Shown here piece after piece: positions 6,181-22,697 of a stretch of DNA of 64,000 nucleotides. The stretch lies in the NCBI RefSeq assembly GCF_058153355.1, contig NZ_CM177019.1; one strand, 5' to 3'. Within the stretch, counting starts at the first letter, position 1. Every line of letters starts with the position of its first letter. The notes beneath the pieces were generated by a model. That model was given only the letters and a program-made list of their open reading frames with translations, did no database searches and was not told the origin of the DNA. Position numbers and translations under genes: made by a program.

Positions 6181-8493
6181 ATGTCCTCAGAAGGATTACG
6201 TTTCACGCTGTCGGTGGCCGGTATCGTGGAGATGGCGACGGCGGTGGTGAGCTTCCGTCTGTACCAGCACCACTGCACGCCGTTCATCCTGGATGTGGAT
6301 ATCGCCAGCGGGCTGCCCGACCTGACGGCGGAGGATTTTCTGGAGAAGAGCGCGGTGCTGACGGTCTGGCAGGGTGATATCCCGCAGCGTTACGTCAGCG
6401 GTATCGTGACGGAGGTGCAGCTCGGTGAGAACAACGACTGGCAGATGCGTTATTCCCTGAGCATCAGCCCGCCGCTGTGGCGGGCAGGGTTACGGCAGAA
6501 CTTCCGTATCTTCCAGCAGCAGGACATTCAGACGATATCAGCACAGCTTCTGAGAGAGAACGGGGTGACGGCGTGGATGCCGCTGTTCTATGAGGCGCAC
6601 CCGGCGCGGGAGTTCTGCGTGCAGTACGGGGAGAGCGACCTGGCATTCCTGACCCGGCTGTGGGCGGAGGAAGGTATCTTCTTTTATGAGCGCTGCGGTC
6701 AGGAAGGGCCGGAGCAGAAGCTGGCGGTGTGTGATGACGTGGCGGGGCTGACGGGAATGGGGGCGCTGGCGTTTAACCCGAATACCACGACCGGGGGAAC
6801 GACGGAGTACATCAGTGAGTTTCGTTACCGTGCGCAGATAAGCGTGGCGTCGGTGGAGACGCAGGATTATACGTTCAAAACGCCGGGGTGGCCGGGGTAC
6901 TACAGCCATGACGGGGAGAGCCTGAACGGGCAGGGAACGCAGTACGAGATATTTGATTATCCGGGGCGTTTCAAGGATGAGCAGCATGGCCAGGATTTTG
7001 CGCGTTACCAGACGGAAGGGTGGCGGAACGGGGCGGAGACGGCGAGCGGGGTGTGTAACACGGCGCGGCTGTGGCCGGGAACGCGGTTCCGGCTGACGGG
7101 CCATCCCTCAGAGACGCTGAACCGGGAATGGCAGGTTGTGGGAAGCACACTGCGGGGAGAACAGCCGCAGGCGCTGCACGGGAGTCACGGTGAAGGGACG
7201 ACACTGAGCAATCAGTTTGAGGTGATACCGGCAGACAGGACGTGGCGTCACGCGCCGCTGCCGAAGCCGAAGGTGGACGGCCCGCAGAGTGCCATCGTGA
7301 CCGGGCCGAAGGGTGAGGAGATATTCTGCGACGAGCATGGCCGGGTACGGGTGAAGTTTCACTGGGACCGTTATCACGGGATGACGGAGGAGAGTTCGTG
7401 CTGGATACGGGTGTCGCAGGCATGGGCGGGACCGGGGTTCGGCAATCTGGCGATACCGCGTGTGGGTCAGGAAGTGATAGTGGACTTTCTGAACGGCGAC
7501 CCGGACCAGCCCATTGTGACGGGGCGGACCTACCATGAAGATAACCGTTCACCGGGGGATTTACCGGGCACGCGGACGCAGATGACCATCCGCTCGAAGA
7601 CCTATAAAGGAAGCGGCTTTAATGAACTGCGTTTCGAGGATGCGACGGACAGTGAGCAGGTGTATATCCACGCGCAGAAGAACATGGACACGGAGGTGCT
7701 TAACGACCGGACGACGGACGTGAAGCATGACCATACGGAGACCATCGGTAACGACCAGAAGATAAGGGTGGTGAAGGGGCAGACGGTTGAGGTCGGCACC
7801 AGAAAAGAAGGGGGTCACGACCAGAGTATCACGGTGGCGAACGACCGGCGCATAACGGTACGTAATGACCAGACGCTGAAGGTGACGAATGACCGGACGG
7901 TGAGCGTGAGTCACGATGACGGCCTGTATGTCAGAAACGACCGTAAAGTGACGGTGGAAGGGAAGCAGGAGCATAAGACGACGGGGAACCATATCAGCCT
8001 GGTGGAGGGAAAGCACAGTCTGGAGGTGAAGGGCGACCTGGCGGAGAAGGTGAGTGGCGCGCTGGGGATCAAGGTGGACGGGGATATCGTGCTGGAGAGC
8101 AGCAGCCGGATAAGCCTGAAAGTGGGCGGCTCGTTCGTGGTGATACACTCTGGCGGTGTGGATATTGCGGGGCCGAAGATAAACCTCAACGGGGGAGGCA
8201 GTCCGGGGACGCCAGTACAGACGTTACAACCGGTGGTACTGGAGGCGCTGGAGGATGAGAATGATGATGAGAACCCTGAAAAATATACTCTCCAGTTCCA
8301 TTTTACAGACGATGACGGGATACCGTATTCAGAGACACGCTACATTGCCTTCTTTGAGGACGGCACGCAGACGCGAGGGGAGACGGATGAAAATGGGTAT
8401 ACGGAAACATTCTCCACTGACAGCGAGCAGACAATCGAAGTCAGATTGTTGCATTTGAATATCGATATGATATGGGGAGGGATTAATGAATAG
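6181..8493 (+). CDS. vgrG: T6SS spike protein VgrG (copy 1) with C-terminal transthyretin-like extension
   Basis: N-terminus MSSEGLRFTLSV... typical of VgrG; GAGG RBS 5 nt upstream of the ATG at 6181 (the track ORF start at 6148 is an in-frame upstream ATG); gp27/gp5-like repeats; about 90 aa extension after the PKINLNGGGSPGTP end of the conserved core. Confidence 0.9.
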   Translation: MSSEGLRFTLSVAGIVEMATAVVSFRLYQHHCTPFILDVDIASGLPDLTAEDFLEKSAVLTVWQGDIPQRYVSGIVTEVQLGENNDWQMRYSLSISPPLWRAGLRQNFRIFQQQDIQTISAQLLRENGVTAWMPLFYEAHPAREFCVQYGESDLAFLTRLWAEEGIFFYERCGQEGPEQKLAVCDDVAGLTGMGALAFNPNTTTGGTTEYISEFRYRAQISVASVETQDYTFKTPGWPGYYSHDGESLNGQGTQYEIFDYPGRFKDEQHGQDFARYQTEGWRNGAETASGVCNTARLWPGTRFRLTGHPSETLNREWQVVGSTLRGEQPQALHGSHGEGTTLSNQFEVIPADRTWRHAPLPKPKVDGPQSAIVTGPKGEEIFCDEHGRVRVKFHWDRYHGMTEESSCWIRVSQAWAGPGFGNLAIPRVGQEVIVDFLNGDPDQPIVTGRTYHEDNRSPGDLPGTRTQMTIRSKTYKGSGFNELRFEDATDSEQVYIHAQKNMDTEVLNDRTTDVKHDHTETIGNDQKIRVVKGQTVEVGTRKEGGHDQSITVANDRRITVRNDQTLKVTNDRTVSVSHDDGLYVRNDRKVTVEGKQEHKTTGNHISLVEGKHSLEVKGDLAEKVSGALGIKVDGDIVLESSSRISLKVGGSFVVIHSGGVDIAGPKINLNGGGSPGTPVQTLQPVVLEALEDENDDENPEKYTLQFHFTDDDGIPYSETRYIAFFEDGTQTRGETDENGYTETFSTDSEQTIEVRLLHLNIDMIWGGINE

Positions 8494-8576
8494 AGAGTGA
8501 CCGCCTGTAATTGGCGTGTTTTTGCATAAATGGAACAGGGTTTTGTAGTGAAAACATATTGCTAAGGAGGATTTAT

Positions 8577-9422
8577 ATGGGAGATGGAAAGGGTAGTACG
8601 AGCGGAAAAAGCCAGAGCGGTGAACAGTGTGTAGTTTTAAAGGAGGGAAAAATTACTAATGATTTTAAAATAATGATGAGAGAGGCTCTGAAGGCGCTGA
8701 TGGCTGTATTGAAGAAAAGAGTAGAAGATCTTGGTGATAAATGGGGAGAGGAACAAAATCAGGAGTTTATAAATATATTTGGTATTGATGGAAATACTTA
8801 TATTAAATTAGAGTTCCCTTTCGGGGGGCGTAAGGTTATGTTTCCAGAGAATATAAAGGCAAGGGATTATATGAGAAATGGCGTTACTCGCCTGTATGAG
8901 ATATGTGGGGAATTATCTGTGGAAGGTGATTGTGTAGACGTTACTATTCATGACCATTTCCTCAAACGTGATGCCAATTGTAATCTTGTTCTTAATGACA
9001 AAGGGGGTAATGAATATGTTGACAAAGACGTAATCAGGCCCAAAACCGGTAACTTTGTGAATTGTACAGATAATGACGCTTATGCTGCCAATGTAACTTA
9101 CGATCAGATTTTGGGTGTAAAACCTGGAGGCTTTAAAAGTTTGGTAAGTATAACTATAGGACAAAGATTTATAGATAGGCCACCCACTGGGAAAAACTCT
9201 AAGGCATCGACACTCTGCCATGAACTATCTCACTTTATAAGGTACGGGGATTCATTTAAGTTTGGAGGCATGTGGACGGAAGATATGCCGGTAGATATAG
9301 AGTATAATACAGGTGACGAATATATTGTTCATGCCACTAAATTAAAAAATGATAAAAAATCAGAACTATTTCAGAATGCATATAATATCGAACGTTATTT
9401 CGAGATTCATGTACCATATTGA
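8577..9422 (+). CDS. hypothetical protein with HExxH zinc-metallopeptidase-like motif; candidate VgrG1 cargo effector
   Basis: ATG at 8577 preceded by AAGGAGG RBS; 281 aa; motif CHELSHF (HExxH) near the C-terminus followed by acidic NTGDEY; strongly AT-rich next to GC-rich vgrG; directly downstream of vgrG1. Confidence 0.6.
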   Translation: MGDGKGSTSGKSQSGEQCVVLKEGKITNDFKIMMREALKALMAVLKKRVEDLGDKWGEEQNQEFINIFGIDGNTYIKLEFPFGGRKVMFPENIKARDYMRNGVTRLYEICGELSVEGDCVDVTIHDHFLKRDANCNLVLNDKGGNEYVDKDVIRPKTGNFVNCTDNDAYAANVTYDQILGVKPGGFKSLVSITIGQRFIDRPPTGKNSKASTLCHELSHFIRYGDSFKFGGMWTEDMPVDIEYNTGDEYIVHATKLKNDKKSELFQNAYNIERYFEIHVPY

Positions 9423-9446
9423 TGCTTTTATTTGACGGGGGAGTAT

Positions 9447-10355
9447 ATGCTTGCTAGATGGATTGTTTTTATTGTTTTTTTTGCGCATCCAATATTTGCT
9501 TATGATATCTCTGGCGATTATGCTGTTCATTACAGATATGGGAAGTTATATTGGAATGGAGTAATGGACAAACTTGGTGTCTATCCTCGTGTAGAGCCGA
9601 CAAGGCTTAATTATTATGATTATTATGATGATCTTTCAGCCTATGCTGTTTTTCAATATTATACTATCAGTAAAAATGAGAGTCAGTATAATCAAGATAA
9701 AAATAAAATATATCTTCATCTTTCCGTGCATCAGAAAGAAAATATTGTAGCAGCTGCAGTGGTTTTATCGAATAAAAGCCAGGGATCTTATTTTGTTCAT
9801 CGACTAACTCTTCCTCTTGACGTTAACGGCGGGCCTTACTCTTCCTTGTGTAGTGGTGTGTTTATACCGATAATGGATAACATTCAGTTGGATTTTTTAA
9901 AAAAAACAAAATGTAGCTTTGGTGAATGGAAAAATAAATCCGTTTGGCACGAGATATTAACAGGGAAAGAGCTATCCTTTGATGTCATATTGAACGATTA
10001 TTATGCCTTTTTACCGGGCATTCATCGTTATAATATAGGAACGGTAGAATTTACAATAGTTAATCAAGAGTGGTTTACAGAACAATGTATATATGAGTAT
10101 TTTCTTTCTATTATGAACTGGCGGGCAGAAAGTGAGTGTACTAATCCTATAGATAAAATAAGATATGGTATAGAGGAGTGGCGGGTTTGGAGAATTTGTG
10201 GACCTTATCGTGGGTCAGGTCTATTTCAGGATTTTTTAGCACGCTTTGGCTATCATGGCGGTAATGATAATATATTCAAAATAAGATCAAATCAGGTTGT
10301 GGTTACTATTGATGGGGATAGGGCATCTCCTCCTTATTCGTTGAGGAATTATTAA
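9447..10355 (+). CDS. hypothetical secreted protein (N-terminal signal peptide); candidate immunity or partner of the upstream HExxH protein
   Basis: ATG at 9447 with GGGGGAG RBS; N-terminus MLARWIVFIVFFAHPIFA is a typical Sec signal peptide; Tyr/Trp-rich, AT-rich; starts 25 nt after the stop of the previous gene. Confidence 0.55.
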   Translation: MLARWIVFIVFFAHPIFAYDISGDYAVHYRYGKLYWNGVMDKLGVYPRVEPTRLNYYDYYDDLSAYAVFQYYTISKNESQYNQDKNKIYLHLSVHQKENIVAAAVVLSNKSQGSYFVHRLTLPLDVNGGPYSSLCSGVFIPIMDNIQLDFLKKTKCSFGEWKNKSVWHEILTGKELSFDVILNDYYAFLPGIHRYNIGTVEFTIVNQEWFTEQCIYEYFLSIMNWRAESECTNPIDKIRYGIEEWRVWRICGPYRGSGLFQDFLARFGYHGGNDNIFKIRSNQVVVTIDGDRASPPYSLRNY

Positions 10356-10510: not shown

Positions 10511-12712
10511 ATGTCATTAAAAGGGCTGCGCTTTACGCTGACGGTGGACGGACTGGTGCCGGAGACGTTTGCGGTGGTGGATTTCCGCCTCACGCAGGCA
10601 TACTCATCGCCGTTCGTCCTGGATGTGGACGTTGCCAGCGACTCGTTCCGCCAGACGGCGGAGAAGCTGCTGGAGAAGGGGGCCGTACTGACCATCTGGC
10701 AGGGTGGCACGGCGCTGCGTTATGTGAGCGGTGTGGTGTCGGGGTTCGGCATGAAGGAGCACAACGGCTGGCAGATGCAGTACCACCTTCAGATACGTCC
10801 GCCCCTGTGGCGCAGCGGGCTGCGCCAGAACTACCGAATCTTCCAGCAGCAGGACATTCAGGCCATCTCCGCCACGCTGTTAAACGAGGACGGAGTGACG
10901 CAGTGGACGCCGCGCTTTTATGAGAGCCACCCGGCACGGGAGTTCTGCGTCCAGTACGGTGAAAGCGACATGGCGTTTCTGACCCGGCTGTGGGCGGGGG
11001 AAGGCATCTTCTTTTATGACAGATACGCTGACGACAGCCCGGAGCAGACGCTCACGCTGTGCGATGATGTGGCGGGCCTGCCGGTGTACGGGGAGATACC
11101 GTTTAACCCGAACACCCGTGAGGTGACGACGGCGTGCATCAGCCTGTTCCGCTACCAGGCGCAGGTGCGGCCCTCGCAGGTGCGTTCAAAAGACCACACG
11201 TTTAAGGTGCCGGACTGGCCGGGTATTTACATTGAGGATGCTGAAAACCTCAACGGGCAACTGAAGCAGTACAAAATCCTGGACTGGCCGGGGCGCTACA
11301 AGGACGAGCAGCATGGTCAGGACTTTACCCGCTACCGGCTGGAAGGGCTGCGTAACAGTGCTGAAACCGCCACAGGTATCAGTAACTCCCCGGCGCTGTG
11401 GCCGGGACGGCGGTTCACCTTGACGGGGCATCCGGTACAGGGAGCGAACCCGAACCGTGAGTGGCAGGTGGTGAGCAGCACGCTGACGGGGAGCCAGCCG
11501 CAGGCGCTGCACGGGAGTCACGGTGAAGGGACGACACTGAGCAATCAGTTTGAGGTGATACCGGCAGACAGGACGTGGCGTCACGCGCCGCTGCCGAAGC
11601 CGAAGGTGGACGGCCCGCAGAGTGCCATCGTGACCGGGCCGAAGGGTGAGGAGATATTCTGCGACGAGCATGGCCGGGTACGGGTGAAGTTTCACTGGGA
11701 CCGTTATCACGGGATGACGGAGGAGAGTTCGTGCTGGATACGGGTGTCGCAGGCATGGGCGGGACCGGGGTTCGGCAATCTGGCGATACCGCGTGTGGGT
11801 CAGGAAGTGATAGTGGACTTTCTGAACGGCGACCCGGACCAGCCCATTGTGACGGGGCGGACCTACCATGAAGATAACCGTTCACCGGGGGATTTACCGG
11901 GCACGCGGACGCAGATGACCATCCGCTCGAAGACCTATAAAGGAAGCGGCTTTAATGAACTGCGTTTCGAGGATGCGACGGACAGTGAGCAGGTGTATAT
12001 CCACGCGCAGAAGAACATGGACACGGAGGTGCTTAACGACCGGACGACGGACGTGAAGCATGACCATACGGAGACCATCGGTAACGACCAGAAGATAAGG
12101 GTGGTGAAGGGGCAGACGGTTGAGGTCGGCACCAGAAAAGAAGGGGGTCACGACCAGAGTATCACGGTGGCGAACGACCGGCGCATAACGGTACGTAATG
12201 ACCAGACGCTGAAGGTGACGAATGACCGGACGGTGAGCGTGAGTCACGATGACGGCCTGTATGTCAGAAACGACCGTAAAGTGACGGTGGAAGGGAAGCA
12301 GGAGCATAAGACGACGGGGAACCATATCAGCCTGGTGGAGGGAAAGCACAGTCTGGAGGTGAAGGGCGACCTGGCGAGGAAGATTACCGGTGCGCTGGGA
12401 ATGAAGGTCCGGAATGAAATCGTACTGGAGAGTGGCGGTAAAATCACCCTAAAGGTGGGTGGTTCGTTTGTGGTCATCCATTCAGGGGGCGTGGACATCG
12501 TCGGGCCGAAAATCAATCTCAATAGCGGCGGTAGTCCGGGAACGCCGGTGCCGACGCTACGACCGGCGGTTTTGAAAGCGCTGGCAGATTATGACAATGG
12601 CGGACCTGGAACTGAAGGGGCGGAGCCACCACGGAAAAGTGTACAGGAAGCCTTTGATCCTCCCCAGCAGGATAAGGTACCGCCACAACGGCCGGGAAGA
12701 TTCTCACGATAA
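10511..12712 (+). CDS. vgrG: T6SS spike protein VgrG (copy 2) with short Pro-rich C-terminal tail
   Basis: 733-aa ORF, N-terminus MSLKGLRFTLTVDGL...; central about 0.88 kb is nucleotide-identical to vgrG1; GGAGG RBS upstream. Confidence 0.92.
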   Translation: MSLKGLRFTLTVDGLVPETFAVVDFRLTQAYSSPFVLDVDVASDSFRQTAEKLLEKGAVLTIWQGGTALRYVSGVVSGFGMKEHNGWQMQYHLQIRPPLWRSGLRQNYRIFQQQDIQAISATLLNEDGVTQWTPRFYESHPAREFCVQYGESDMAFLTRLWAGEGIFFYDRYADDSPEQTLTLCDDVAGLPVYGEIPFNPNTREVTTACISLFRYQAQVRPSQVRSKDHTFKVPDWPGIYIEDAENLNGQLKQYKILDWPGRYKDEQHGQDFTRYRLEGLRNSAETATGISNSPALWPGRRFTLTGHPVQGANPNREWQVVSSTLTGSQPQALHGSHGEGTTLSNQFEVIPADRTWRHAPLPKPKVDGPQSAIVTGPKGEEIFCDEHGRVRVKFHWDRYHGMTEESSCWIRVSQAWAGPGFGNLAIPRVGQEVIVDFLNGDPDQPIVTGRTYHEDNRSPGDLPGTRTQMTIRSKTYKGSGFNELRFEDATDSEQVYIHAQKNMDTEVLNDRTTDVKHDHTETIGNDQKIRVVKGQTVEVGTRKEGGHDQSITVANDRRITVRNDQTLKVTNDRTVSVSHDDGLYVRNDRKVTVEGKQEHKTTGNHISLVEGKHSLEVKGDLARKITGALGMKVRNEIVLESGGKITLKVGGSFVVIHSGGVDIVGPKINLNSGGSPGTPVPTLRPAVLKALADYDNGGPGTEGAEPPRKSVQEAFDPPQQDKVPPQRPGRFSR

Positions 12713-12721
12713 GGACTGAAC

Positions 12722-15211
12722 ATGAAAATCAGCCATCCCATCAGGGATAAAGAAGGCAAAGAGTTTCGCTCACTGGATGAGATAATGCGGCTTATTGACA
12801 AAGAAGCGCACGGAACCTGGCTGCTGGGTGGAAACGGGCTGTGGCACGGCGGGATACATATCAGTGACGTGTCTAATCCGTTATCAGCCCTGAAACCGGA
12901 TACCGCCGCTACCGGAGAACCGGTTCCTCTTCAGTTTATGGCCGATGGCACCATTGCGGCGTACCGGATAAATAATGATTACCTGAAAGGCCCCTACAAA
13001 GGGCAGCAACTCCGTTACAGCAGCACATTTGTTCTGGTGAAATCGCAGTGCCAGCCAGACCCGCAAAAAAAAGAAAGCTGGCTGGAATTTTACTGTCTCT
13101 ATATGCATCTGGCCCCGGTGAACGATTATCCCGGCTCCCCCTGCTATAAAGTTAAAACCGGGCATGGTGGCATATTGCTGCACCGATACATCCCGGGAAA
13201 GAACGGCCTTCCCGAGGGGCAGGAAAGCGGAGATCATGCCACGTACTGGATACCCCCGAAAATCAGCGGAAACAGGACACTTAATGCGGGAGATCGGTTT
13301 GTGTCATCCCGGACCGGACGTTTTTACGTGACCAATAACGGCCAGCCGGTCCTGACGACATTCGGACTGGTTCGCCTGCTGGAAGGCAATAAACCGGGGA
13401 ATGAGCAGTACTGGGTGACCCTGGATCCGGATCTGATGGAGTCAGATGGCGAAATACAGATGCTGATGCCTGAGTGGATGCAGAAGGCGAAGGCAAAAGG
13501 CATTTTTGACTCGGTACAGACGGTCGACGAAACGGAAGAGTGGAAAGTCAGTGCCGGAACACCGGTCGGATTTATGGGATGCGAGGATTATCCTGGCGAG
13601 GGAAGCGGTGAGATTGAGCGCGAGTGGTTCGTCCATCTGGAGGTTCTGAGTACAGACCCGAATATGCCAAAGTTCTTATCCAACCCGGCAGGCGTTAAGG
13701 GAGAAAAACGGACTGTTCTGGCACCAAAAGGGATAATTTTATACACCCGGCAGGCCGTTCCGGGACAGGAGGTATTTACCGCAACCGCAGCCACGCTGGG
13801 TGCTCAGCGCGTTCTTCCGCGGGAAGCCACGACACCAGTCACGGATGAATCGCAGCAGTGGTGGTTTAATATCACCGGAACCGGCTGGCTGCCACAAAAG
13901 GATGTTGAAGAGGCCGGACAGTATGATTTACTGAAGCTGGGTTTTCAACCGCTGGAGGAGAACAGCAGCGGTGACATGACGTACAGCCCGTACGAAGGAT
14001 GGGTGCCGGAAGCGTTTGACTCAATAAGCCGTGCCGCAGAACAGGGAGATGAGTGGCTGTATGAGCAGGTACCGCCCTTTTATCGTGAGCTGATGGCGGG
14101 TATGGATCAGGACGGTGATGGAAAAGTGACGGAGGAAGAGATCAGACAGGCGCTGATCGTGCGTGAACCACTGGTGAGAAATGTGGTGAATCATCTGATA
14201 GTTAAACACCACAGCGAATGGTACGGAGGGCGCTCGACAGGGCGGTGGGAAGGATTTTATAAAGATCTGGATACAGAGGAAGTGGCATACTGTGAGAAGT
14301 GGCAGCTGGATCTGGAGTGGATGAGCGGGGTATCTCCGTTTAATAGTGATGATGCTGTGTGGCATTTTCATCCGGTTGTGTTTTTGGACGCTATTAATTC
14401 CAAATCTGTGTGTGCTTGCAACAGAGATATAACATTAGATGAATTAAAAAAAGTTGCTCCTGCAGTAAGTGAAGGTCTTCTCAAAAGGTACCTCTACGAT
14501 ATAAATGCAGGGTTTATTCGGTTTGGTATGACCACTTGTAGAGAAAAAGCCCATTTTCTTGCTCAAATTATTCACGAGAGCGGTTATTTTAGATATACCA
14601 AAGAAATTAATGGTGAATCAGCTTCATATAGTCCGTGGTATGGCCGAGGCTTAATACAAGTTACAGGCGAAAGTAATTACACCGCCTATGGGGAATATAT
14701 CAATGAGGACGTAACATCTTCAGATTCCGCAAGAGATAAACTCATATCCTCCCCACATTGCGTATTATCTGCGTTTTGGTATTTCAATATATTCAAAAGA
14801 ATAAATGAAGATGCTAAAAATGATGATTTTAATAAAATTACAGTAGTGATTAATGGAGGGTATAATCATTATGATGAACGGTTGTCGATATTTAATAAAT
14901 TGGTTACCTCACTTGCTGCCGAGCATTTAAATCAGAAAGAAATGAACGACGATTTCTTGTTTGATGATAGTGACGTATATGATAATAAAGTATATGCTTT
15001 GGGATGGGGGATATGGCATGATCCTGATAGCTCCCGAAGAGGGACGATCAAGAGTAACGAAGAAGCATTAAAAGGTTATAGAAGGGCGAAAGAATTAATT
15101 GACCTGCATCCGTTTCCTCAGGAAGGGCGTGAGGGTGATAGAAAAGTATATGGAATAGAAAAAAGGAATATATCCACATTTGTAGAGAGACGAATAACTG
15201 AACTGGAGTAA
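12722..15211 (+). CDS. modular T6SS effector candidate: unknown N-terminal domain, EF-hand, C-terminal GH19 (chitinase/lysozyme-like) peptidoglycan hydrolase domain
   Basis: 829-aa ORF 9 nt after the vgrG2 stop; canonical EF-hand loop DQDGDGKVTEEE; C-terminal motifs AHFLAQIIHESG and YGRGLIQVTGESNY match GH19-family catalytic signatures; the C-terminal third is AT-rich compared with the N-terminal part. Confidence 0.75.
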   Translation: MKISHPIRDKEGKEFRSLDEIMRLIDKEAHGTWLLGGNGLWHGGIHISDVSNPLSALKPDTAATGEPVPLQFMADGTIAAYRINNDYLKGPYKGQQLRYSSTFVLVKSQCQPDPQKKESWLEFYCLYMHLAPVNDYPGSPCYKVKTGHGGILLHRYIPGKNGLPEGQESGDHATYWIPPKISGNRTLNAGDRFVSSRTGRFYVTNNGQPVLTTFGLVRLLEGNKPGNEQYWVTLDPDLMESDGEIQMLMPEWMQKAKAKGIFDSVQTVDETEEWKVSAGTPVGFMGCEDYPGEGSGEIEREWFVHLEVLSTDPNMPKFLSNPAGVKGEKRTVLAPKGIILYTRQAVPGQEVFTATAATLGAQRVLPREATTPVTDESQQWWFNITGTGWLPQKDVEEAGQYDLLKLGFQPLEENSSGDMTYSPYEGWVPEAFDSISRAAEQGDEWLYEQVPPFYRELMAGMDQDGDGKVTEEEIRQALIVREPLVRNVVNHLIVKHHSEWYGGRSTGRWEGFYKDLDTEEVAYCEKWQLDLEWMSGVSPFNSDDAVWHFHPVVFLDAINSKSVCACNRDITLDELKKVAPAVSEGLLKRYLYDINAGFIRFGMTTCREKAHFLAQIIHESGYFRYTKEINGESASYSPWYGRGLIQVTGESNYTAYGEYINEDVTSSDSARDKLISSPHCVLSAFWYFNIFKRINEDAKNDDFNKITVVINGGYNHYDERLSIFNKLVTSLAAEHLNQKEMNDDFLFDDSDVYDNKVYALGWGIWHDPDSSRRGTIKSNEEALKGYRRAKELIDLHPFPQEGREGDRKVYGIEKRNISTFVERRITELE

Positions 15212-15216: not shown

Positions 15217-15627
15217 ATGAAAGTTAATTTATTGGTTTTACTGTTTTGTTTGGTGCCTTGTTGTTTATTGGCTAAACAACAAACAACGGTAGGCTGTTTT
15301 AGCGCTGGGAAAACAAATTTAAAGTTTGTTGAAATATCGTCTGGCGATATTTTTTTAGGTTATGTGATTTATGAGAAATCCTCAAAATTTATACCTCTTG
15401 CGTTTATAAATAAATTAGAAGTGACTTTCGATGACAGGCCTTCTGAATTTTCTTATGCATGGAGCGAGGTTGTAAATGGAAAAATTAATGGGTTGTATGT
15501 TGTTTCCACACAAGGTGCAAGATTTAATTTGTTTCATTATAAATCAATAAGTGGGAAAACAACTGAGTTTGAAGAAAATATTGAGGCATATAATGATGAT
15601 GGTACTGATTGCAAATGGACTGGATGA
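15217..15627 (+). CDS. putative periplasmic immunity protein for the GH19-type effector
   Basis: 136-aa ORF starting 6 nt after the effector stop; N-terminal signal peptide MKVNLLVLLFCLVPCCLLA; AT-rich like the toxin domain. Confidence 0.6.
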   Translation: MKVNLLVLLFCLVPCCLLAKQQTTVGCFSAGKTNLKFVEISSGDIFLGYVIYEKSSKFIPLAFINKLEVTFDDRPSEFSYAWSEVVNGKINGLYVVSTQGARFNLFHYKSISGKTTEFEENIEAYNDDGTDCKWTG

Positions 15628-15789
15628 CCATTGTGCAGTTTTTTATGAAATCGATGCTGTGTTATTAAAATAATAATGCGACTAGGTTGAATTTGTTTAT
15701 TATTAATTTAAATGTTTTATGATTTTAAGTTAGACATGAATAACTGACTGGAAAATTATTTTTGAGGGATATCGTACAGGCAGGCAGGG

Positions 15790-17070
15790 AAAGATCACGT
15801 AACGCTGCTTTTTTGTACTATACAATTCGCATTTTATGTTTGAAAATTGAGATATTCCTCATTACCTGAAGCTGTTTTTTATTGCTTATACATGATCAAA
15901 TACTCCTTACATAATTAAGGAGAACAAAATGGTACTTAAAAAATTGATGGAACATATTTCTATTATCCCCGATTACAGACAAGCCTGGAAAGTGGAACAT
16001 AAATTATCGGATATTCTACTGTTGACTATTTGCGCCGTTATTTCGGGTGCAGAAGGCTGGGAAGATATAGAGGATTTTGGGGAAACACATCTCGATTTTT
16101 TGAAGCAATATGGTGATTTTGAAAATGGTATTCCTGTTCACGATACCATTGTCAGAGTTGTATCCTGTATCAGTCCTGCAAAATTTCACGAGTGCTTTAT
16201 TAACTGGATGCGTGACTGCCATTCTTCAGATGATAAAGGCGTCATTGCAATTGATGGAAAAACGCTCCGGCACTCTTATGACAAGAGTCGCCGCAGGGGA
16301 GCGATTCATGTCATTAGTGCGTTCTCAACAATGCACAGTCTGGTCATCGGACAGATCAAGACGGATGAGAAATCCAATGAGATTACAGCTATCCCAGAAC
16401 TTCTTAACATGCTGGATATTAAAGGAAAAATCATCACAACTGATGCGATGGGTTGCCAGAAAGATATTGCAGAGAAGATACAAAAACAGGGAGGTGATTA
16501 TTTATTCGCGGTAAAAGGAAACCAGGGGCGGCTAAATAAAGCCTTTGAGGAAAAATTTCCGCTGAAAGAATTAAATAATCCAGATCATGACAGTTAAGCG
16601 ATTAGTGAAAAGAGTCACGGCAGAGAAAAAATCCGTCTTCATATTGTTTGCGATGTCCCTGATGAACTTATTGATTTCACGTTTGAATGGAAAGGTCTGA
16701 AGAAATTATGCGTGGCAGTCTCCTTTCGGTTAATAATAGCAGAACAAAAGAAAGAGCCAGAAATGACGGTCAGATATTATATCAGTTCTGCTGATTTAAC
16801 CGCAGAGAAGTTCGCCACAGCAATCCGAAACCACTGGCACGTGGAGAATAAGCTGCACTGGCGTCTGGACGTGGTAATGAATGAAGACGACTGCAAAATA
16901 AGAAGAGGAAACGCCGCAGAATTATTTTCAGGGATACGGCACATCGCTATTAATATTTTAACGAATGATAAGGTATTCAAGGCAGGGTTAAGACGTAAGA
17001 TGCGAAAAGCAGCCATGGACAGAAACTATCTCGCGTCAGTCCTTGCGGGGAGCGGGCTTTCGTAATCTTG
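15790..17070 (+). mobile_element. H-repeat (H-rpt) element, ISAs1 family, nearly full length
   Basis: Encodes the H-repeat-associated transposase-like protein; its 5' end, including about 140 bp upstream of the ATG, recurs at 19865-20290 and in degenerate form at 21975-22635; element boundaries are approximate. Confidence 0.75.
15929..17065 (+). pseudogene. ISAs1-family (H-repeat-associated) transposase, interrupted by a single in-frame TAA
   Basis: ORFs 15929-16597 and 16712-17065 are in the same frame (669 and 114 nt offsets are multiples of 3) and separated only by TAA at 16598-16600; combined length about 378 codons, the size of intact H-rpt proteins. Confidence 0.75.
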
Positions 17071-17075
17071 CCCTG

Positions 17076-19492
17076 GAGGTGATACCGGCGGACAGGACGT
17101 GGCGTCACGCGCCCCTGCCGAAGCCGAAGGTGGACGGCCCGCAGAGTGCCATCGTGACCGGGCCGAAGGGCGAGGAGATATTCTGCGACGAGCATGGCCG
17201 GGTACGGGTGAAGTTTCACTGGGACCGTTATCACGGGATGACGGAGGAGAGTTCATGCTGGATACGGGCGTCGCAGGCATGGGCGGGACCGGGGTTCGGC
17301 AATCTGGCGATACCGCGTGTGGGTCAGGAAGTGATAGTGGACTTTCTGAACGGCGACCCGGACCAGCCCATTGTGACGGGGCGGACATACCATGAGGACA
17401 ACCGTTCACCGGGGGATTTACCGGGCACGCGGACGCAGATGACCATCCGCTCGAAGACCTATAAAGGAAGCGGCTTTAATGAACTGCGTTTCGAGGATGC
17501 GACGGACAGTGAGCAGGTGTATATCCACGCGCAGAAGAACATGGACACGGAGGTGCTTAACGACCGGACGACGGACGTGAAGCATGACCATACGGAGACC
17601 ATCGGTAACGACCAGAAGATAAGGGTGGTGAAGGGGCAGACGGTTGAGGTCGGCACCAGAAAAGAAGGGGGTCACGACCAGAGTATCACGGTGGCGAACG
17701 ACCGGCGCATAACGGTACGTAATGACCAGACGCTGAAGGTGACGAATGACCGGACGGTGAGCGTGAGTCACGATGACGGCCTGTATGTCAGAAACGACCG
17801 TAAAGTGACGGTGGAAGGGAAGCAGGAGCATAAGACGACGGGGAACCATATCAGTCTGGTGGAGGGAACGCACAGTCTGGAGGTGAAGGGCGACCTGGCG
17901 AGGAAGATTACCGGTGCGCTGGGAATGAAGGTCCGGGATGAAATCGTACTGGAGAGTGGTGGTAAAATCACCCTGAAGTGGGTGGCTCGTTTGTGGTCGT
18001 TCATTCTGGTGGTGTGGATATTGTCGGACCGAAAATAAATCTGAATTGCGGGCGCAGTCCGGGGACGCCGATAAATACACTACAACCGGCAGTTATGGAC
18101 GCTCTGGCTGACGAGCAGTATGACAGAGGGAATGCTGGCGGCGGGAATGACGGAGAGCCTAGTGATGAGGATGAATCAGAAGGTGGAGAAGAAGACAAGG
18201 ACGATTCAGATGAACTGGTAATTCCTGTATACGCAAAATCTTGTCTGAAGGAGAAAGGCTGCACTGATGCTGGTACGACCATGGAGCCATCGAAACATTT
18301 TGGTGATATGGCTCTATTTGCCCAGCCAGTGGAGGATGACTGTTGCGGCTATGGTACACACTATCATGACGATGAAGTGGAGCAACTTGCGCAGTCAGCA
18401 AAAAAAACCTCAGGAGCGAACTCACTGACGGGGGAAATGACAGTTGCGTCAGCGGGTGTTGCGGTTCCACTAGCGGCGGAACAGTCTGCGGGAGTTTTAA
18501 CTCGCGTATGGGGAACATTAGGGGCATGGGGTGGAGAAGGTTTTTTAAGTGTATCAAAAACGGTGCCAGCCCTTGGTGTCCTAGTATCAGCACTATATCC
18601 AATACCTGCCGGTGAAGGTAGTGATAAAGTTCCTGGACGGGATGAACAGTGGCTCGAAAATGAGCTACGTCGTAAAGCGCAATCTGGAGAGACGGCAGCT
18701 ACGCGGGCGCGCTTTCTCTTTCAGCGGAATACTGCTGGTGAATTGAGGACATACGGATACCACACACCCGCAGGTTCGGAACTTGAAGGTGTTCGGGTAG
18801 CATTGATGGAGTGGAATAAGGAATTTTCCCGTTATGAATTTTCACCTGTGTCTGATTCGGGACCAAAAATATTTTGGACGCCTGCAAAGCCAGAAGGTTC
18901 AGAGCAGCCCATACACACCGGAACTCCTGTCGAACCAGTTGATCTACCTGATATTTATGTTAATCCGATACCCGATGAAAAAACAGATATCACCACGCCG
19001 CCTTCTCCAATGCCGGAGGAGCGAAATTTTAATGACTGGATACTTGTCTTTCCTGACGGTGCGGAATTAACACCAATATATGTGTATCTGAAAACTGCAA
19101 GGGATGTAGCGGGAACAGTAACAGGTAAGGGGGAGGTGTTAGCAGGTACAGGAAGATGGCTGTCGCAGGCGGGGAAAAGCTTAGGAGTGCCAATTCCACA
19201 ACAGGTCGCAAATAAACTTCGGAGTAAGTCATTTAACAATTTTGATGAATTCATGGCAGCTTTCTGGACTGCTGTAGGTGAATGTCCAGAACTATTGAGC
19301 CAATTTAATAAAGCTAACCAAACGTTGATAAAGCGTGGACGCGCACCTTATACTATATCAAGACAAAGAGTTGGGGGGCGAGGTACATTTGAAATTCATC
19401 ATATTGACGAAATCCAATATGGGGGAGAAGTCTATGATATTGATAATCTTAGAGTAAACACACCTAAAAACCACATACGATTGCATAAATAA
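17076..19492 (+). pseudogene. 5'-truncated, frameshifted vgrG (copy 3) fused to colicin E9-like HNH DNase toxin domain
   Basis: vgrG homology begins abruptly at about 17076, right after the H-rpt end, so the N-terminal half is missing; a 1-nt deletion near 17977 (ctgaagtgggtgg here, ctaaaggtgggtgg in vgrG2) splits the reading frame; C-terminal domain ...GRGTFEIHHIDEIQYGGEVYDIDNLRVNTPKNHIRLHK matches the colicin E9/E7 DNase HNH motif. Confidence 0.8.
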
Positions 19493-19505
19493 AAAGGAGG
19501 TAGTA

Positions 19506-19778
19506 ATGGAGTTTAAAAATAATCTAGAAGATTATACGGAAGATGAATTTATCGAACTTCTAAATAATTTTTTTGAACCACCTGAGGAATTGCATGGCGA
19601 TAAGTTGTCGAAGTTTATTGATGATCTTGTAAGTCATTTTATTAGAATCACTCAGCACCCAGATGGTAGTGATTTGATATTCTATCCATCTGAAGATAGA
19701 GAAGATAGTCCCCAAGGGATTGTTGATGAGTTAAAACGATGGCGAGCATCGCAGGGGCTAGGATGCTTTAAAATATAA
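19506..19778 (+). CDS. colicin DNase-type immunity protein (Im9/Im7-like)
   Basis: 90-aa ORF 14 nt after the DNase stop with GGAGG RBS; MEFKNNLEDYTEDEFIELL...HPDGSDLIFYP...DSPQGIV...RWRASQG aligns with the Im9 family (DYTE.EF, HP.GSDLI.YP, DSP.GIV). Confidence 0.85.
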   Translation: MEFKNNLEDYTEDEFIELLNNFFEPPEELHGDKLSKFIDDLVSHFIRITQHPDGSDLIFYPSEDREDSPQGIVDELKRWRASQGLGCFKI

Positions 19779-19864
19779 TGAAAATAAATACTCATCATAT
19801 TTTATTAAAATGATTGGTGTTTTTGTTATTAACCTTAAACCACTTCCTGAGAAGGTGGTACAGG

Positions 19865-20295
19865 GAAAGATCACCAGAAGTACACTTTTTGTACTAAATA
19901 ATTCGCATTTTATGTTCAATAATTGAGATATTCCTCATTACCTGAGGCTGTTTTTTATTGCTTATACATGATCAAATACTCCTTACATAATTAAGGAGAA
20001 CAAAATGGAACTTAAAAAATTGATGGAACATATTTCTGTTATTCCTGATTACAGACAAGCCTGGAAAGTGGAACATAAATTGTCGGATATTCTACTTTTG
20101 ACTATTTGCTCCGTCATTTCTGGTACAGAAGGCTGGCAAGATATAGAGAATTTTGGGGAAACACATCTCGATTTTTTGAAGCGACATGGTGATTTTTGAA
20201 ATGGTATTCCTGTTCACATACCATTGCCAGAGTTGTATCCTGTATCAGCCCTGCAAAATTTCATGAGTGCTTTATTAAAAGGAAACCAGGGGCGG
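19865..20295 (+). mobile_element. H-repeat 5' fragment (includes truncated 64-codon transposase ORF 20005-20199)
   Basis: Near-identical to 15790-16210 of the full H-rpt; the ORF ends prematurely (GDF then stop); joined through a short internal H-rpt piece (GNQGRL) to effector-derived sequence. Confidence 0.75.
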
Positions 20296-21465
20296 CTTAA
20301 TATCACCGGAACCGGCTGGCTGCCACAAAAGGATGTTGAAGAGGCCGGACAGTATGATTTACTGAAGCTGGGTTTTCAACCGCTGGAGGAGAACAGCAGC
20401 GGTGACATGACGTACAGCCCGTACGAAGGATGGGTGCCGGAAGCGTTTGACTCAATAAGCCGTGCCGCAGAACAGGGAGATGAGTGGCTGTATGAGCAGG
20501 TACCGCCCTTTTATCGTGAGCTGATGGCGGGTATGGATCAGGACGGTGATGGAAAAGTGACGGAGGAAGAGATCAGACAGGCGCTGACCGTGCGTGAACC
20601 ACTGGTGAGAAATGTGGTGAATCGTCTGACAGTCAGACACCACAGCGAGTGGTACGGCGGTCGCTCGACGGGACGCTGGGAAGGGTTTTATAAAGATCTG
20701 GACACCGAGGAAGTGGCATACTGTGAAAAGTGGCAGCTGGATCTGGAGTGGATGAGCGGGGTGTCTCCGTTTAATAGTGATGATGCTGTGTGGCATTTTC
20801 ATCCGGTTGTGTTTTTGAATGCTATTAATAATAGCAATTACCCAAAAACTCCTGTGAATAATGAACTTATTCCATTGGAATTTTTACGATTTTATAACGG
20901 AGATACCATTGATGATGCAGACTATGAAAATGCTGCAAGGACACTACAATGCGAAGTGGCTGCAATTAAAGCTGTTGCAAAAACTGAAACTGGTAGTTCC
21001 GGTAGCTATTTTAAATTTGAACAAGAAGATGATTACGTCCCCTCAATTCTTTTTGAAAGACATCATTTCCATCGATATACGAATGGTGTGTATGATTCTC
21101 AACCTGATATTTCCAACAGCCGTTCTGGCGGTTATGGAACACGATCGGAGCAATATCAAAAATTACTTCGTGCATATGTTTTAGATAAGCAAGCTGCGCT
21201 TAAATCGGCATCGTGGGGTAAATTTCAGATATTGGCTTCAAATTACCAAGCTACCGGGTACTCTTCGCCCGAAGAGTTTATAATATCGATTTCAGAGTTA
21301 GAGAAAAACCATCTGGCGGCATTCATTAACTTCATAAAATCTAATCCTGTATTATTGCGTGCTATTAGAGATAAAGATTGGCTTAACTTTGCTCTATGTT
21401 ATAATGGGCAAAGTCAGCGAGGATATGATGACAGAATAAGGGCTAATTATGAGCAATATAGATAG
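20224..21465 (+). CDS. orphan, N-terminally truncated effector module: conserved EF-hand middle region plus alternative C-terminal N-acetylmuramidase (DUF3380-like) domain
   Basis: Residues from NITGTGWLPQKDVEEAG through HPVVFL are about 95% identical at nucleotide level to 13865-14395 of the 829-aa effector, then diverge into a C-terminus with ILFERHHFHRYT, SWGKFQILASNY and LCYNGQSQ motifs typical of the DUF3380 muramidase family; the first 20 codons derive from H-rpt sequence in another frame. Confidence 0.7.
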   Translation: MPELYPVSALQNFMSALLKGNQGRLNITGTGWLPQKDVEEAGQYDLLKLGFQPLEENSSGDMTYSPYEGWVPEAFDSISRAAEQGDEWLYEQVPPFYRELMAGMDQDGDGKVTEEEIRQALTVREPLVRNVVNRLTVRHHSEWYGGRSTGRWEGFYKDLDTEEVAYCEKWQLDLEWMSGVSPFNSDDAVWHFHPVVFLNAINNSNYPKTPVNNELIPLEFLRFYNGDTIDDADYENAARTLQCEVAAIKAVAKTETGSSGSYFKFEQEDDYVPSILFERHHFHRYTNGVYDSQPDISNSRSGGYGTRSEQYQKLLRAYVLDKQAALKSASWGKFQILASNYQATGYSSPEEFIISISELEKNHLAAFINFIKSNPVLLRAIRDKDWLNFALCYNGQSQRGYDDRIRANYEQYR

Positions 21466-21898
21466 AGCATTAATTTTTATTTTTTTATCTGGAATTCCCT
21501 GGACTCTACACGCAGGAAATAATTATTTTTTATGTAATACATCCAAAGGAACTTTGTCATTAACAAGTTTTGGTGAAACGTTGATTTATGAAATGAATAG
21601 TCAGCATGGGAATAAATTTCAATTCATTTCAGATGGACCAATGTATTCAGGATTTTTTTATAATCATTACTCCAGATTTCAAACGGATTACTTTAGCGTT
21701 AGTTTTATTCAAAGTGGATATAAGTACTCCGTGTTTAGCAATTACGACAACGGTAGTAACATGCGAGGGGTTAGTGTCATTGATATGAAAACAAAAAAAG
21801 AATACGTTTATAATTGCAAAGATTATAAAGTGGACAGGCTTTATAATCTGAAAAAAAAGCTTAAATGTGATATTAATAATGTACTAAGTTGTCAGTAA
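21449..21898 (+). CDS. putative periplasmic immunity protein for the orphan muramidase domain
   Basis: 149-aa ORF overlapping the toxin stop by 17 nt; N-terminal signal peptide (MSNIDRALIFIFLSGIPWTLHA); AT-rich. Confidence 0.55.
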   Translation: MSNIDRALIFIFLSGIPWTLHAGNNYFLCNTSKGTLSLTSFGETLIYEMNSQHGNKFQFISDGPMYSGFFYNHYSRFQTDYFSVSFIQSGYKYSVFSNYDNGSNMRGVSVIDMKTKKEYVYNCKDYKVDRLYNLKKKLKCDINNVLSCQ

Positions 21899-21904
21899 AT
21901 TGTA

Positions 21905-22640
21905 TCTTACAACGTTCGGGCGGTACGATTTACTGAAGCTGGCTTTTCATAGGCTGGAGGAAAACAGCAAGGGTAATAAAGGTAAAGACCATATAACGCC
22001 GATTTTTTGCACTAAACAATTAGCACTAAATGTCCAATAATCAAGATATCCCTTATTATTTAATAAGTGTTTTCATAGCTTATATATATTCAGACACTCC
22101 TTACATAAACAAGGAGAAAAAATGGAACTTAAAAAATTAATGGAGCATATTTCTACTGTCCCGATTACAGACAAGTCTGGAAAGTAGAGTATAAATTATC
22201 AGATATCCTAGTGCTGATTATTTTCGCCATCCTTTCCGGAGCTGAAGGATGGGAAGATATAGAGGATTCTGGTGAGACTCATCTCGATTTGTTGAAGCAA
22301 TATGGTGATTTTTAATATGGTATTCCTATTCACGATATCATTGCCAGAGTTGTGTCCTGTATCAGTCCTGGAAAATTTCACGAGTTCTTTATTAGCTGGA
22401 TGTGTGACTGTCATTCTTCAGATAATAAAACCATCATCGCAATAGATGGAAAAGCACTCCAGCACTTTTTTGATTAGCATCGTCGCAGAGGAACAATTCA
22501 TAATCATTGCGATCTCGACGATGTATAGTCTGATCCTGCGGCAGAACAAGACGGATAAAAAATCTAATGAGAGCACACTCATCAAGAACTTCTCAACCTA
22601 ATGAATATTAAAGAAAAATCATCGCAGCCAATGAAGTAAT
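21905..22640 (+). mobile_element. degenerate third module remnant: effector middle-region fragment plus decayed H-repeat 5' portion
   Basis: 21920-21975 resembles the effector YDLLKLGFQPLEENS coding sequence; 22124-22635 is a diverged H-rpt 5' part with several in-frame stops. Confidence 0.6.
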
Positions 22641-22697
22641 ATGCAAAAATAATTAGTCCTTACAAGGAGCAAAGTTCCATAATCTCCCCCGCCCCCC

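Follow-up and report, generated by a model that had tools for sequence, protein, structure and literature searches.

Which element fills the interval between yibF and yibH in this E. coli chromosome, and could the proteins it encodes be delivered by a T6SS? Within the 64-kb stretch of DNA that we analyzed (hereafter the window), homology to K-12 on the yibF side stops at position 6149, 44 bp short of the K-12 rhsA start position. The following ~16.5 kb (6181-22626) fill exactly the place of the RhsA element of K-12, and the two share a terminal H-rpt remnant, as the 3' part of ISAs1 fragment C (from 22403) is common to the K-12 pseudogene yibU at the right edge of RhsA. Among 5426 complete E. 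coli genomes, yibF is adjoined by rhsA in 3591 and by a vgrG gene in 3. Our reading, to which we give a probability of about 0.85, is that an auxiliary ("orphan") T6SS spike-and-effector island has replaced the RhsA element between yibF and yibH.

An earlier note on this DNA had described, between these same flanks, three vgrG genes (two intact, one decayed), at least four toxin/immunity-like cassettes and three H-repeat copies, and our analysis bears out this inventory (Table 1). The island contains two intact vgrG genes, a third that is truncated and frameshifted, four toxin/immunity cassettes recognized by domain and structure matches, and three ISAs1 (H-rpt) copies, namely copy A and fragments B and C. 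The alternation of GC-rich vgrG with AT-rich cargo pointed out in that note was also found (GC of 0.53-0.65 in vgrG regions vs 0.31-0.38 in cargo regions); inside effector 2, GC falls from 0.54 to 0.34 where the WHIX domain gives way to the C-terminal toxin domain. A promoter scan was uninformative (36 sites against 28.6±4.7 expected); expression of the island genes is presumed.

Table 1. Features of the yibF-yibH interval (window coordinates).
Feature	Position	Strand	Size	Basis or remark
yibF	5357..5965	-		left flank
vgrG-1, intact T6SS spike	6181..8493	+	770 aa	TIGR03361, PF05954, PF04717, PDB 4mtk
Cargo effector 1, HExxH zinc metallopeptidase with M35 (aspzincin) fold	8577..9422	+	281 aa	motifs, AF2, Foldseek
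Putative immunity protein for effector 1	9447..10355	+	302 aa	position and sequence
vgrG-2, intact spike	10511..12712	+	733 aa	TIGR03361, PF05954, PF04717
Cargo effector 2, WHIX + EF-hand + GH19-type lysozyme-like C-terminus	12722..15211	+	829 aa	
Putative immunity protein for effector 2, signal-peptide-like N-terminus	15217..15627	+	136 aa	position, sequence
ISAs1 (H-rpt) copy A	15785..17075	+	about 1.29 kb	NF033564
vgrG-3' pseudogene, C-terminus Pyocin_S + colicin/pyocin HNH DNase	17076..19492	+		profile and gene alignment
DNase immunity gene	19506..19778	+	90 aa	exact-sequence match; precomputed PF01320 Colicin_Pyocin
ISAs1 fragment B, 5' part of element	19861..20278	+	418 bp	91.6% identical to copy A
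Orphan effector fragment: 3' part of WHIX, EF-hand, N-acetylmuramidase C-terminus	20287..21465	+		
Putative immunity protein for orphan muramidase, signal-peptide-like N-terminus	21449..21898	+	149 aa	position, sequence
WHIX mid-region remnant	21917..21969	+	53 nt	85% identical to 13915-13967 and 20346-20398
ISAs1 fragment C	21980..22626	+		repeat comparison
yibH	22698..23834	-		right flank

Both long vgrG ORFs carry the gp27/gp5 domains whose presence had been set beforehand as the decisive check, with matches to PF05954 (E 4e-75 for VgrG-1 and 3e-74 for VgrG-2) and PF04717 (E about 5e-14 for each). Against TIGR03361 (cutoff 186 bits) they score 589 and 587 bits, respectively, and the third vgrG covers only the 3' two-thirds of the model. 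VgrG-1 also matches PDB 4mtk (E 9e-93). Since VgrG shares ancestry with phage gp27 and gp5, such genes could in principle be remnants of a prophage, a tailocin or an extracellular contractile-injection system, and VgrG-1 does weakly match T4 gp5 and Afp8. Nevertheless, T6SS VgrGs are the best matches by far, and neither the island nor the window contains genes for a sheath, tube or baseplate, or any other phage gene. A PHROGs search assigned no family to either effector or to the 302-aa protein, its sole match being an unannotated family for the C-terminal 87 aa of VgrG-1. We regard a phage-derived origin of this kind as effectively refuted.

The first module pairs VgrG-1 with a putative zinc peptidase. 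VgrG-1 ends in an acidic linker followed by a ~80-aa C-terminal domain weakly resembling the TTR domain of EAEC VgrG; the single PDB match of the C-terminal 87 aa is a weak one, to residues 773-830 of 6sjl (E 0.034). Effector 1 has no match in Pfam or NCBIfam and belongs to a small protein family (8 homologues found), and among its homologues (n=9) the motifs CHELSH...GG.x.xD and NAYNIERYF are invariant. Its AF2 model (pLDDT 84.8) was compared with the PDB using Foldseek, and significant matches were confined to AsaP1 and GfMEP, both M35 enzymes (E about 1e-4, probability 1.00). The downstream ORF encodes a 302-aa protein without a match in family searches, whose hydrophobic, signal-peptide-like N-terminus (MLARWIVFIVFFAHPIFA) and position suggest that it is the cognate immunity protein. 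VgrG-1 would load the M35-fold peptidase through its TTR-like extension, the peptidase would act in the prey periplasm, and the signal-peptide protein would guard the producer. This module looks functional.

In the second module, VgrG-2 has a Pro-rich C-terminal tail ending in ...KVPPQRPGRFSR. The same tail motif is found in Citrobacter, Klebsiella and Enterobacter, on VgrGs whose genes precede those of WHIX homologues; there, as in the island, 9 bp separate the vgrG stop from the WHIX effector start. Effector 2 has the WHIX signature WHGGIH at aa 41-46, with conservation extending to about aa 560, and shares its N-terminal 565 aa with 279 proteins that bear many different peptidoglycan-hydrolase C-termini; Fridman et al. 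(2025) list its ortholog WP_000703217.1 in their WHIX dataset. An EF-hand was also detected (E 9e-4), and the C-terminus matches GH19 endolysins (9ms7, E 2e-13; 4ok7, E 8e-10). WHIX domains are reported to dock on the tail at the C-terminus of the VgrG encoded upstream (PMC12135965). By analogy, the WHIX cavity may cap the conserved VgrG-2 tail (...VPPQRPGRFSR), so that VgrG-2 carries the effector and the GH19 lysozyme-like C-terminus cuts prey peptidoglycan. The small downstream protein, predicted to be periplasmic, had no match in family searches; its position and N-terminal hydrophobicity point to a role as immunity protein. This spike, effector and immunity set likewise looks functional.

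The other two modules are broken. The vgrG-3' pseudogene matches an intact gene of 3456 nt from nt 1039 to nt 3456 at 98.3% identity; it lacks the first 1038 nt (346 codons), and a 1-nt deletion near 17979 shifts its frame. Its toxin domains are clearly recognizable (Pyocin_S, E 8e-32; Col-Pyo_DNase, E 4e-49), and other E. coli have the intact 1151-aa VgrG-DNase at the kdp/RhsC slot; the protein encoded after such intact genes is 100% identical to the 90-aa immunity protein of the island. The orphan effector fragment, whose ORF was called from 20224, retains a muramidase domain (PF11860, E 4e-44). It is followed by a 149-aa protein without a family match, a putative immunity protein by its position and hydrophobic N-terminus, and then by the 53-nt WHIX remnant, which in sequence is the scar of a further displaced copy. 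We propose that the DNase and muramidase modules are displaced leftovers, each 5'-truncated with its immunity gene intact, and that the retained immunity genes probably still shield the cell from kin firing those toxins.

Alternatively, ISAs1 could have been the active agent, the DNase module having transposed from the kdp/RhsC slot in the manner of a composite transposon rather than having been displaced in situ. Directly repeated ISAs1 sequence (copy A and fragment B) does bracket the module, and three relatives have this DNase and immunity DNA (99.5% identical) at their kdp slot, beside ISAs1 fragments. However, the transposase ORF of copy A is disrupted (15929-16597 and 16712-17065; 270 and 103 bits with NF033564), and fragment B is just 418 bp long, with an internal deletion followed by a microhomology junction to the effector fragment. 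Moreover, vgrG-3' begins exactly at the end of copy A, whose limits were placed where the repeats start and where vgrG homology sets in, and simple A×B homologous recombination accounts for the structure in relatives. Transposition is in our view improbable.

Recombination between repeats has left traces in relatives. The ISAs1 fragment of relative N96 is an A/B hybrid and so marks a deletion; the shorter island of relatives is the product of an A×B deletion. The orphan fragment contains a 543-bp WHIX repeat 96% identical to 13856-14398, and one in-silico crossover yields a 770-aa ORF that is 98.1% identical to P0002, a natural 749-aa WHIX-muramidase, over the full length of P0002. The ISAs1 and effector repeats are thus real recombination substrates. 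Together with the vgrG 3' regions, which are near-identical (93-96% over about 1 kb), they provide portable homology by which modules can be lost, exchanged or reactivated, in the way that C-terminal displacement works in Rhs elements.

As the earlier note had stated, the window is devoid of T6SS core genes: tblastn with 16 core/accessory T6SS proteins, DUF4123 and Tle1 gave nothing at E<=1e-3 within its 64 kb. VgrG-1 and VgrG-2 would then both be fired by a T6SS encoded elsewhere, and the source genome presumably possesses one. All three complete genomes carrying the island have a full tssA-M/hcp/clpV cluster at aspV, and over residues 1-514 VgrG-1 shares 97.9% identity with the VgrG of this cluster in MFDS1019527. 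The firing system is most likely this aspV-linked cluster, as judged from the island-carrying relatives. A less favorable view is that the host has no compatible T6SS and that the island, its vgrG and effector genes turning into pseudogenes, is mainly a defensive or decaying relic, retained for the protection that its four immunity genes give against neighbors firing these toxins. In favor of this view, truncation has already struck two of the four modules, only 552 of the 5426 complete genomes (about 10%) have the matching tssBC type, the DNase immunity gene is fully conserved despite its broken toxin gene, and protective orphan immunity genes are documented (PMC6730261). Against this, the ORFs of VgrG-1, VgrG-2 and the two cargo effectors are all full-length and share 95-99% identity with the versions in relatives, and the T6SS accompanies the island in every complete genome that has it. 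We consider the relic scenario unlikely and retain the auxiliary spike-and-effector island as our reading.

The arrangement had also been likened to that of Rhs elements, though built on VgrG instead. The Rhs parallel is stronger than first noted, given the shared K-12 slot and yibU remnant, but a carrier with a fused toxin is seen only in the decayed third vgrG. VgrG as a general toxin-fused carrier does not hold, as VgrG-1 and VgrG-2 have separate cargo effectors, and in cassettes 2 and 4 the WHIX effector, not VgrG, is the polymorphic unit. E. coli Rhs elements such as RhsA of K-12, with their H-rpt and their orphan pairs of C-terminal toxin (CT) and immunity gene (Poole et al., 2011; PMC3150448), have the slot and the terminal H-rpt remnant in common with the island. 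They also follow one plan: the carrier is conserved, the toxin at its C-terminus varies, an immunity gene comes next, and orphan pairs lie displaced behind H-rpt. Unlike them, the island has no YD-repeat Rhs core at all, its carriers being VgrG and WHIX.

The descriptions of WHIX effectors (Fridman et al., 2025; PMC12135965) and of Aeromonas dhakensis TseP (Wang et al., 2025; PMC11893102) match effector 2 in the WHxxxH-containing N-terminal WHIX, the EF-hand, the variable peptidoglycan-hydrolase C-terminus, the downstream signal-peptide immunity gene and a vgrG with a short C-terminal docking tail immediately upstream. On the N-terminal domain itself they differ, with amidase activity claimed for TseP and the Awe1 WHIX reported as non-toxic. 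The island goes beyond these systems in having, behind an ISAs1 fragment, a second, 5'-truncated muramidase allele with its immunity gene and a third, 53-nt remnant; the accessible parts of both papers make no mention of orphan WHIX cassettes like these.

The DNase module resembles VgrG-NucSe1 (SARI_02603) of Salmonella arizonae SPI-21 (PMC12992299), with a VgrG body, Pyocin_S, an HNH DNase and a colicin/pyocin immunity protein, although vgrG-3' is a frameshifted copy from which the first 346 codons are missing. Effector 1, by published descriptions, resembles the M35 toxin of the E. coli PAR VgrG/DUF2345/M35/immunity locus (PMC10673891) and the C-terminal metallopeptidase of P. aeruginosa VgrG2b (PMC6899460), in which an HExxH zinc peptidase follows VgrG, acts in the periplasm and is neutralized by the product of a downstream gene, as may also be the case in the island. 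Experiments have tested the E. coli toxin together with its immunity protein (PMC10673891); that locus has a separate DUF2345 adaptor gene, which the island lacks.

Finally, as in E. coli vgrG islands (Ma et al., 2018, as summarized in PMC6730261; EHEC, PMC7216683), vgrG lies outside a core cluster and needs a distant T6SS. By that summary, the VT modules likewise have an AT-rich cargo toxin of peptidase or lysozyme-like type behind the vgrG, and then an immunity gene. The present island differs from them in its two tandem vgrG-effector-immunity modules with two displaced modules, and in its RhsA-slot location, where vgrG was found in 3 of 5426 complete genomes. All its component families, including vgrG islands, WHIX/TseP, M35 effectors and VgrG-pyocin proteins, are already published; it is a vgrG island in a rare location, the RhsA slot, with toxin and carrier families that have all been described before.

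The interval between yibF and yibH has the layout of an auxiliary vgrG island, with vgrG genes followed by effector/immunity pairs at a distance from the tss core genes (see table). VgrG/TssI spikes were recognized by a gp27-like hub (PF05954), an OB-fold (PF04717), a gp5 beta-helix and a TIGR03361 score above the cutoff (186). VgrG-1 and VgrG-2, the two intact spikes, scored 589 and 587 bits on TIGR03361, and in Pfam both matched PF05954 (E about 1e-74) and PF04717 (E about 5e-14), in agreement with the earlier note on these long ORFs; their nearest solved structure is P. aeruginosa VgrG1 (E 9e-93). The content described in that note, including a third, decayed vgrG (vgrG-3'), is present, as is the proposed alternation of GC-rich vgrG genes (0.53-0.65) with AT-rich cargo (0.31-0.38). 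The absence of tss core genes was also borne out, since tblastn with 16 core/accessory T6SS proteins as well as DUF4123 and Tle1 gave no match in the 64-kb window. Elsewhere the window has ordinary backbone genes (mtlADR, a YadA-like adhesin, lldPRD, cysE, gpsA, secB, gpmM, envC and the beginning of the waa region).

Table. Features annotated in the yibF-yibH interval and elsewhere in the window
Feature	Coordinates	Strand	Remarks
yibF	5357-5965	-	left flank
vgrG-1	6181-8493		VgrG spike, intact
M35-like cargo effector, 281 aa	8577-9422		after vgrG-1
Putative immunity protein, cassette 1	9447-10355		signal-peptide-like N-terminal segment; next ORF after effector
vgrG-2	10511-12712		VgrG spike, intact
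WHIX cargo effector, 829 aa	12722-15211		starts nine bases past vgrG-2
Putative immunity protein, 136 aa	15217-15627		signal-peptide-like N-terminus
ISAs1 copy A	15785-17075		transposase ORF broken
vgrG-3'	17076-19492		decayed; starts exactly at end of ISAs1 copy A
ISAs1 fragment B	19861-20278		starts at same IS end as C
Orphan effector fragment	20224-21465		3' part of WHIX + N-acetylmuramidase (PF11860, E 4e-44)
Signal-peptide ORF	21449-21898		after orphan muramidase fragment
WHIX remnant, 53 nt	21917-21969		
ISAs1 fragment C	21980-22626		starts at same IS end as B
yibH	22698-23834	-	right flank
Trimeric autotransporter adhesin, 1571 aa	30915-35630	+	YadA/Ata/EmaA-like repeats
IS110-family transposase ORF, 326 aa	35882-36862	+	NF033542, about 254 bits
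IS110-family transposase ORF, 326 aa	50397-51377	+	NF033542, about 254 bits

Homology to K-12 stops at position 6149, 44 bp upstream of the rhsA start, and restarts at 22403, within the H-rpt pseudogene yibU; these breakpoints indicate that the island has allelically replaced the RhsA element. A blastn comparison with K-12 rhsA-yibU hit the flanks and the H-rpt remnant only, with no ORF for the YD-repeat Rhs core, and no island protein matched an Rhs family. Among 5426 complete genomes, yibF is adjoined by rhsA in 3591 and by vgrG in three; the module of the WHIX effector (WHIX being a class of T6SS effector secretion domain) with a GH19 C-terminus occurs in three genomes and the DNase module in four. 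Identity to N96, one of the island carriers, is a mosaic of 93-100% in flanks and island alike, giving no sign of recent inter-species transfer. A non-coli Escherichia source, which the mean identity of 93% to E. coli across 24000-48000 could suggest, was rejected, since a windowed comparison showed flanks with a 95-100% mosaic, as in an ordinary E. coli; the adhesin region probably lowers the mean of 24000-48000 to about 93%.

Each of the three complete genomes with the island (N96, MFDS1022581 and MFDS1019527) also has a complete T6SS core cluster, on which an orphan vgrG island would depend. In MFDS1019527 this cluster lies at aspV and comprises two hcp genes, tssB, C, E, F, G, tagH, tssJ, K, L, H, vasI, tssA, M and vasL, together with an IS21-split vgrG. 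Its tssBC sequence is 100% identical across the three carriers and occurs in 552/5426 genomes. Residues 1-514 of VgrG-1 are 97.9% identical to the VgrG of the aspV cluster, and VgrG-2 is 76% identical to it.

The 281 amino acid cargo protein of cassette 1 is predicted to be an M35-fold (aspzincin) peptidase. Foldseek searches with its AlphaFold2 model (pLDDT 84.8) returned the M35 aspzincins AsaP1 and GfMEP as the sole significant matches (E about 1e-4, probability 1.00; target-normalised TM up to 0.75). A CHELSH...GGxxTxD...NAYNIERYF signature is invariant across nine known relatives, and the HExxH zinc motif is kept unchanged as CHELSH in the nine homologues; an invariant Asp lies 17 residues past the second His, within GGMxTxD, which differs from the canonical aspzincin GTxDxxYG. 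Sequence searches gave nothing in Pfam better than a hit to M43 at E 0.09, no match in NCBIfam, and 1g12 as the sole match in the PDB (E 0.04). The next ORF putatively encodes the immunity protein for this toxin. M35 toxins with downstream immunity have been experimentally validated at E. coli vgrG loci (PMC10673891). The annotation of N96 (L001 6276-8060) fuses toxin and putative immunity protein into a single ORF of 594 amino acids, and the window (8577-10355) and MFDS1022581 have a separate gene for each; going by the annotation, both frames are in phase, which implies that N96 has lost the stop codon. Only VgrG-1 has an additional domain at its C-terminus, whose one PDB match is a weak hit to the TTR region of the EAEC VgrG (E 0.034), a weak but specific lead to a candidate cargo-binding site.

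The 829 amino acid effector of cassette 2 is assigned on sequence to the WHIX effectors described by Fridman et al. (2025). Counterparts of the first ~565 residues occur in 279 database proteins of E. coli, Salmonella, Citrobacter, Klebsiella, Enterobacter, Cronobacter and others, and this shared N-terminus is joined to at least seven different kinds of peptidoglycan-hydrolase C-terminus (GH19, PF11860 muramidase, GH108, M23+lysozyme, CHAP, pesticin-like and GH24). The WHxxxH motif of the first WHIX region reads WHGGIH (residues 41-46), and WP_000703217.1, the MFDS1022581 ortholog at the same locus (99% DNA identity), appears in the C-terminal-extension file and tree of the WHIX authors. The C-terminus matches GH19-type endolysins (E 2e-13), and GC drops from 0.54 to 0.34 where WHIX gives way to the toxin domain, which fits a swapped C-terminal tip. 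The earlier note had proposed a secreted carrier with a C-terminal toxin; this does not apply to VgrG-1 and VgrG-2, which have separate cargo effectors, and the Rhs-like polymorphic unit is in part the WHIX effector. The 136 amino acid protein encoded next would be the cognate immunity protein of the WHIX-GH19 effector.

In Aeromonas, WHIX is reported to cap the final residues of the upstream VgrG, and a 14-residue deletion to abolish delivery (PMC12135965). VgrG-2 ends in ...KVPPQRPGRFSR, and this type of tail is found on VgrGs directly upstream of WHIX homologues in Citrobacter (...VPPQIQRIFSR), Klebsiella (...VPPQRRGRISR) and Enterobacter (...IPAQRRGRFSR), each locus with a 9-bp gap between vgrG and effector gene. 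The consensus ...PPQRxGR(F/I)SR spans four genera; VgrG-1 does not carry it. Its conservation lends indirect support to the proposal that secretion of the WHIX effector may depend on a T6SS and on the VgrG-2 tail. Two papers of 2025 are at odds over the conserved N-terminal domain: one describes TseP-N as a Zn-dependent amidase acting through the HxxxH histidines (PMC11893102), and the other reports that Awe1's WHIX domain, by itself, is non-toxic in the periplasm (PMC12135965). The window effector keeps WHGGIH.

Cassettes 3 and 4 are displaced remnants. In cassette 3, vgrG-3' matches TIGR03361 at model positions 337-513 only (the 3' third) and aligns to nt 1039-3456 of an intact 3456-nt gene with 98.3% identity; its reading frame is broken, with nt 1-1038 missing and a 1-nt deletion near 17979. 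The encoded domains include Pyocin_S (E 8e-32) and a colicin/pyocin HNH DNase (E 4e-49). The 90 amino acid PF01320 immunity protein encoded downstream at 19506-19778 is 100% identical to the one that follows intact 1151 amino acid VgrG-DNase genes of other E. coli at the kdp-phr locus, which we take to be the K-12 RhsC slot. Effectors of this VgrG-pyocin DNase type have been validated in Salmonella arizonae as VgrG-NucSe1 (PMC12992299); the window copy has the same Pyocin_S, HNH DNase and downstream PF01320 immunity, but not an intact frame.

In cassette 4, the orphan fragment shares a 543-bp repeat (96% identical) with the intact 829 amino acid effector. Joining the effector up to 14398 with the orphan from 20830 in silico gave a single 770 amino acid ORF, which matches P0002, a natural 749 amino acid WHIX-muramidase, at 98.1% over the full length of P0002. 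A 415 amino acid 'CHAP' ORF downstream of a WHIX effector in Enterobacter was considered as another orphan WHIX fragment and discarded, as blastp found no WHIX homology. Three of the four putative immunity proteins of the island had no match in Pfam or NCBIfam.

The ORF pieces of ISAs1 copy A score 270 and 103 bits on the transposase model NF033564 (cutoff 70), and copy A is probably inactive since this ORF is broken. Positions 16203-19861 are missing from the three island-carrying genomes, whose lone ISAs1 fragment is A-like at 33/39 informative sites and B-like at its 3' end; this switch indicates that their structure is the product of homologous recombination between A and B in a window-like ancestor. 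At the kdp slot, the same genomes carry a DNase module 99.5% identical to that of the window. In other E. coli, the kdp slot (L004-L011) contains an intact VgrG-DNase, its immunity gene, a piece of ISAs1, an orphan fragment of an M23/lysozyme effector together with immunity, a group II intron and ISAs1. At the aspV T6SS end (L013 12487-16309), ISAs1 pseudogenes and a group II intron come after Tle1. Both slots follow the same grammar as the window island.

We tentatively propose, with a probability of roughly 0.3, that WHIX effectors and evolved VgrGs in E. coli undergo the same C-terminal displacement and orphan-cassette storage as Rhs and CdiA toxins, that ISAs1 links the Rhs slots into one network exchanging toxin/immunity cassettes, and that orphans can be reactivated. 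ISAs1/H-rpt would serve as shared portable homology joining RhsA (yibF), RhsC (kdp) and the aspV T6SS end. The muramidase orphan could be reactivated by a single crossover in the 543-bp WHIX repeat, and the DNase orphan by a crossover within the final ~130 bp of the vgrG repeat, bypassing the frameshift.

Other readings of the island were rejected. An anti-phage defence role had no PADLOC match among seven island proteins (four putative immunity proteins, two ISAs1 fragments and the M35-like effector), and for a phage origin PHROGs gave no family for the two effector sequences or the 302 amino acid protein of cassette 1; its sole match was an unannotated family for the C-terminal 87 amino acids of VgrG-1. 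A promoter/terminator scan gave counts near the shuffled expectation. Elsewhere in the window, the first IS110 ORF lies between the adhesin gene and lldP, at a site empty in E. coli D10, and the second adjoins a waaH-like glycosyltransferase gene. Downstream of mtlA (26660-26945), sequences of ~150 bp align to the N96 locus in more than one register (95-97% identity) and are probably REP/BIME-type intergenic repeats.

Overall, the observation and interpretation of the earlier note stand with two refinements, namely the separate cargo effectors and WHIX as a partial polymorphic unit. The locus is rare and tidy and reveals no new type of system: all its components come from published families, and orphan vgrG islands are already established in E. 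coli (PMC6730261, PMC7216683). The M35-fold toxin family in it is small and uncharacterised. The locus is most useful as a worked case of displacement and recombination, and because it supplies VgrG-cargo pairings on which rules of effector loading can be tested (the VgrG-2 tail with WHIX, and the TTR-like domain of VgrG-1 with the M35 toxin). It is a clear natural example of how E. coli reshuffles interbacterial weapons: toxins borne by VgrG occupy a classical Rhs slot, older toxin tips are retained as silent spares whose antidotes are probably live, and whole modules are lost or gained through IS copies. Unlike Rhs elements, the island is without the YD-repeat core; like them, it has the chromosomal slot, the H-rpt and displaced C-terminal toxin/immunity pairs.
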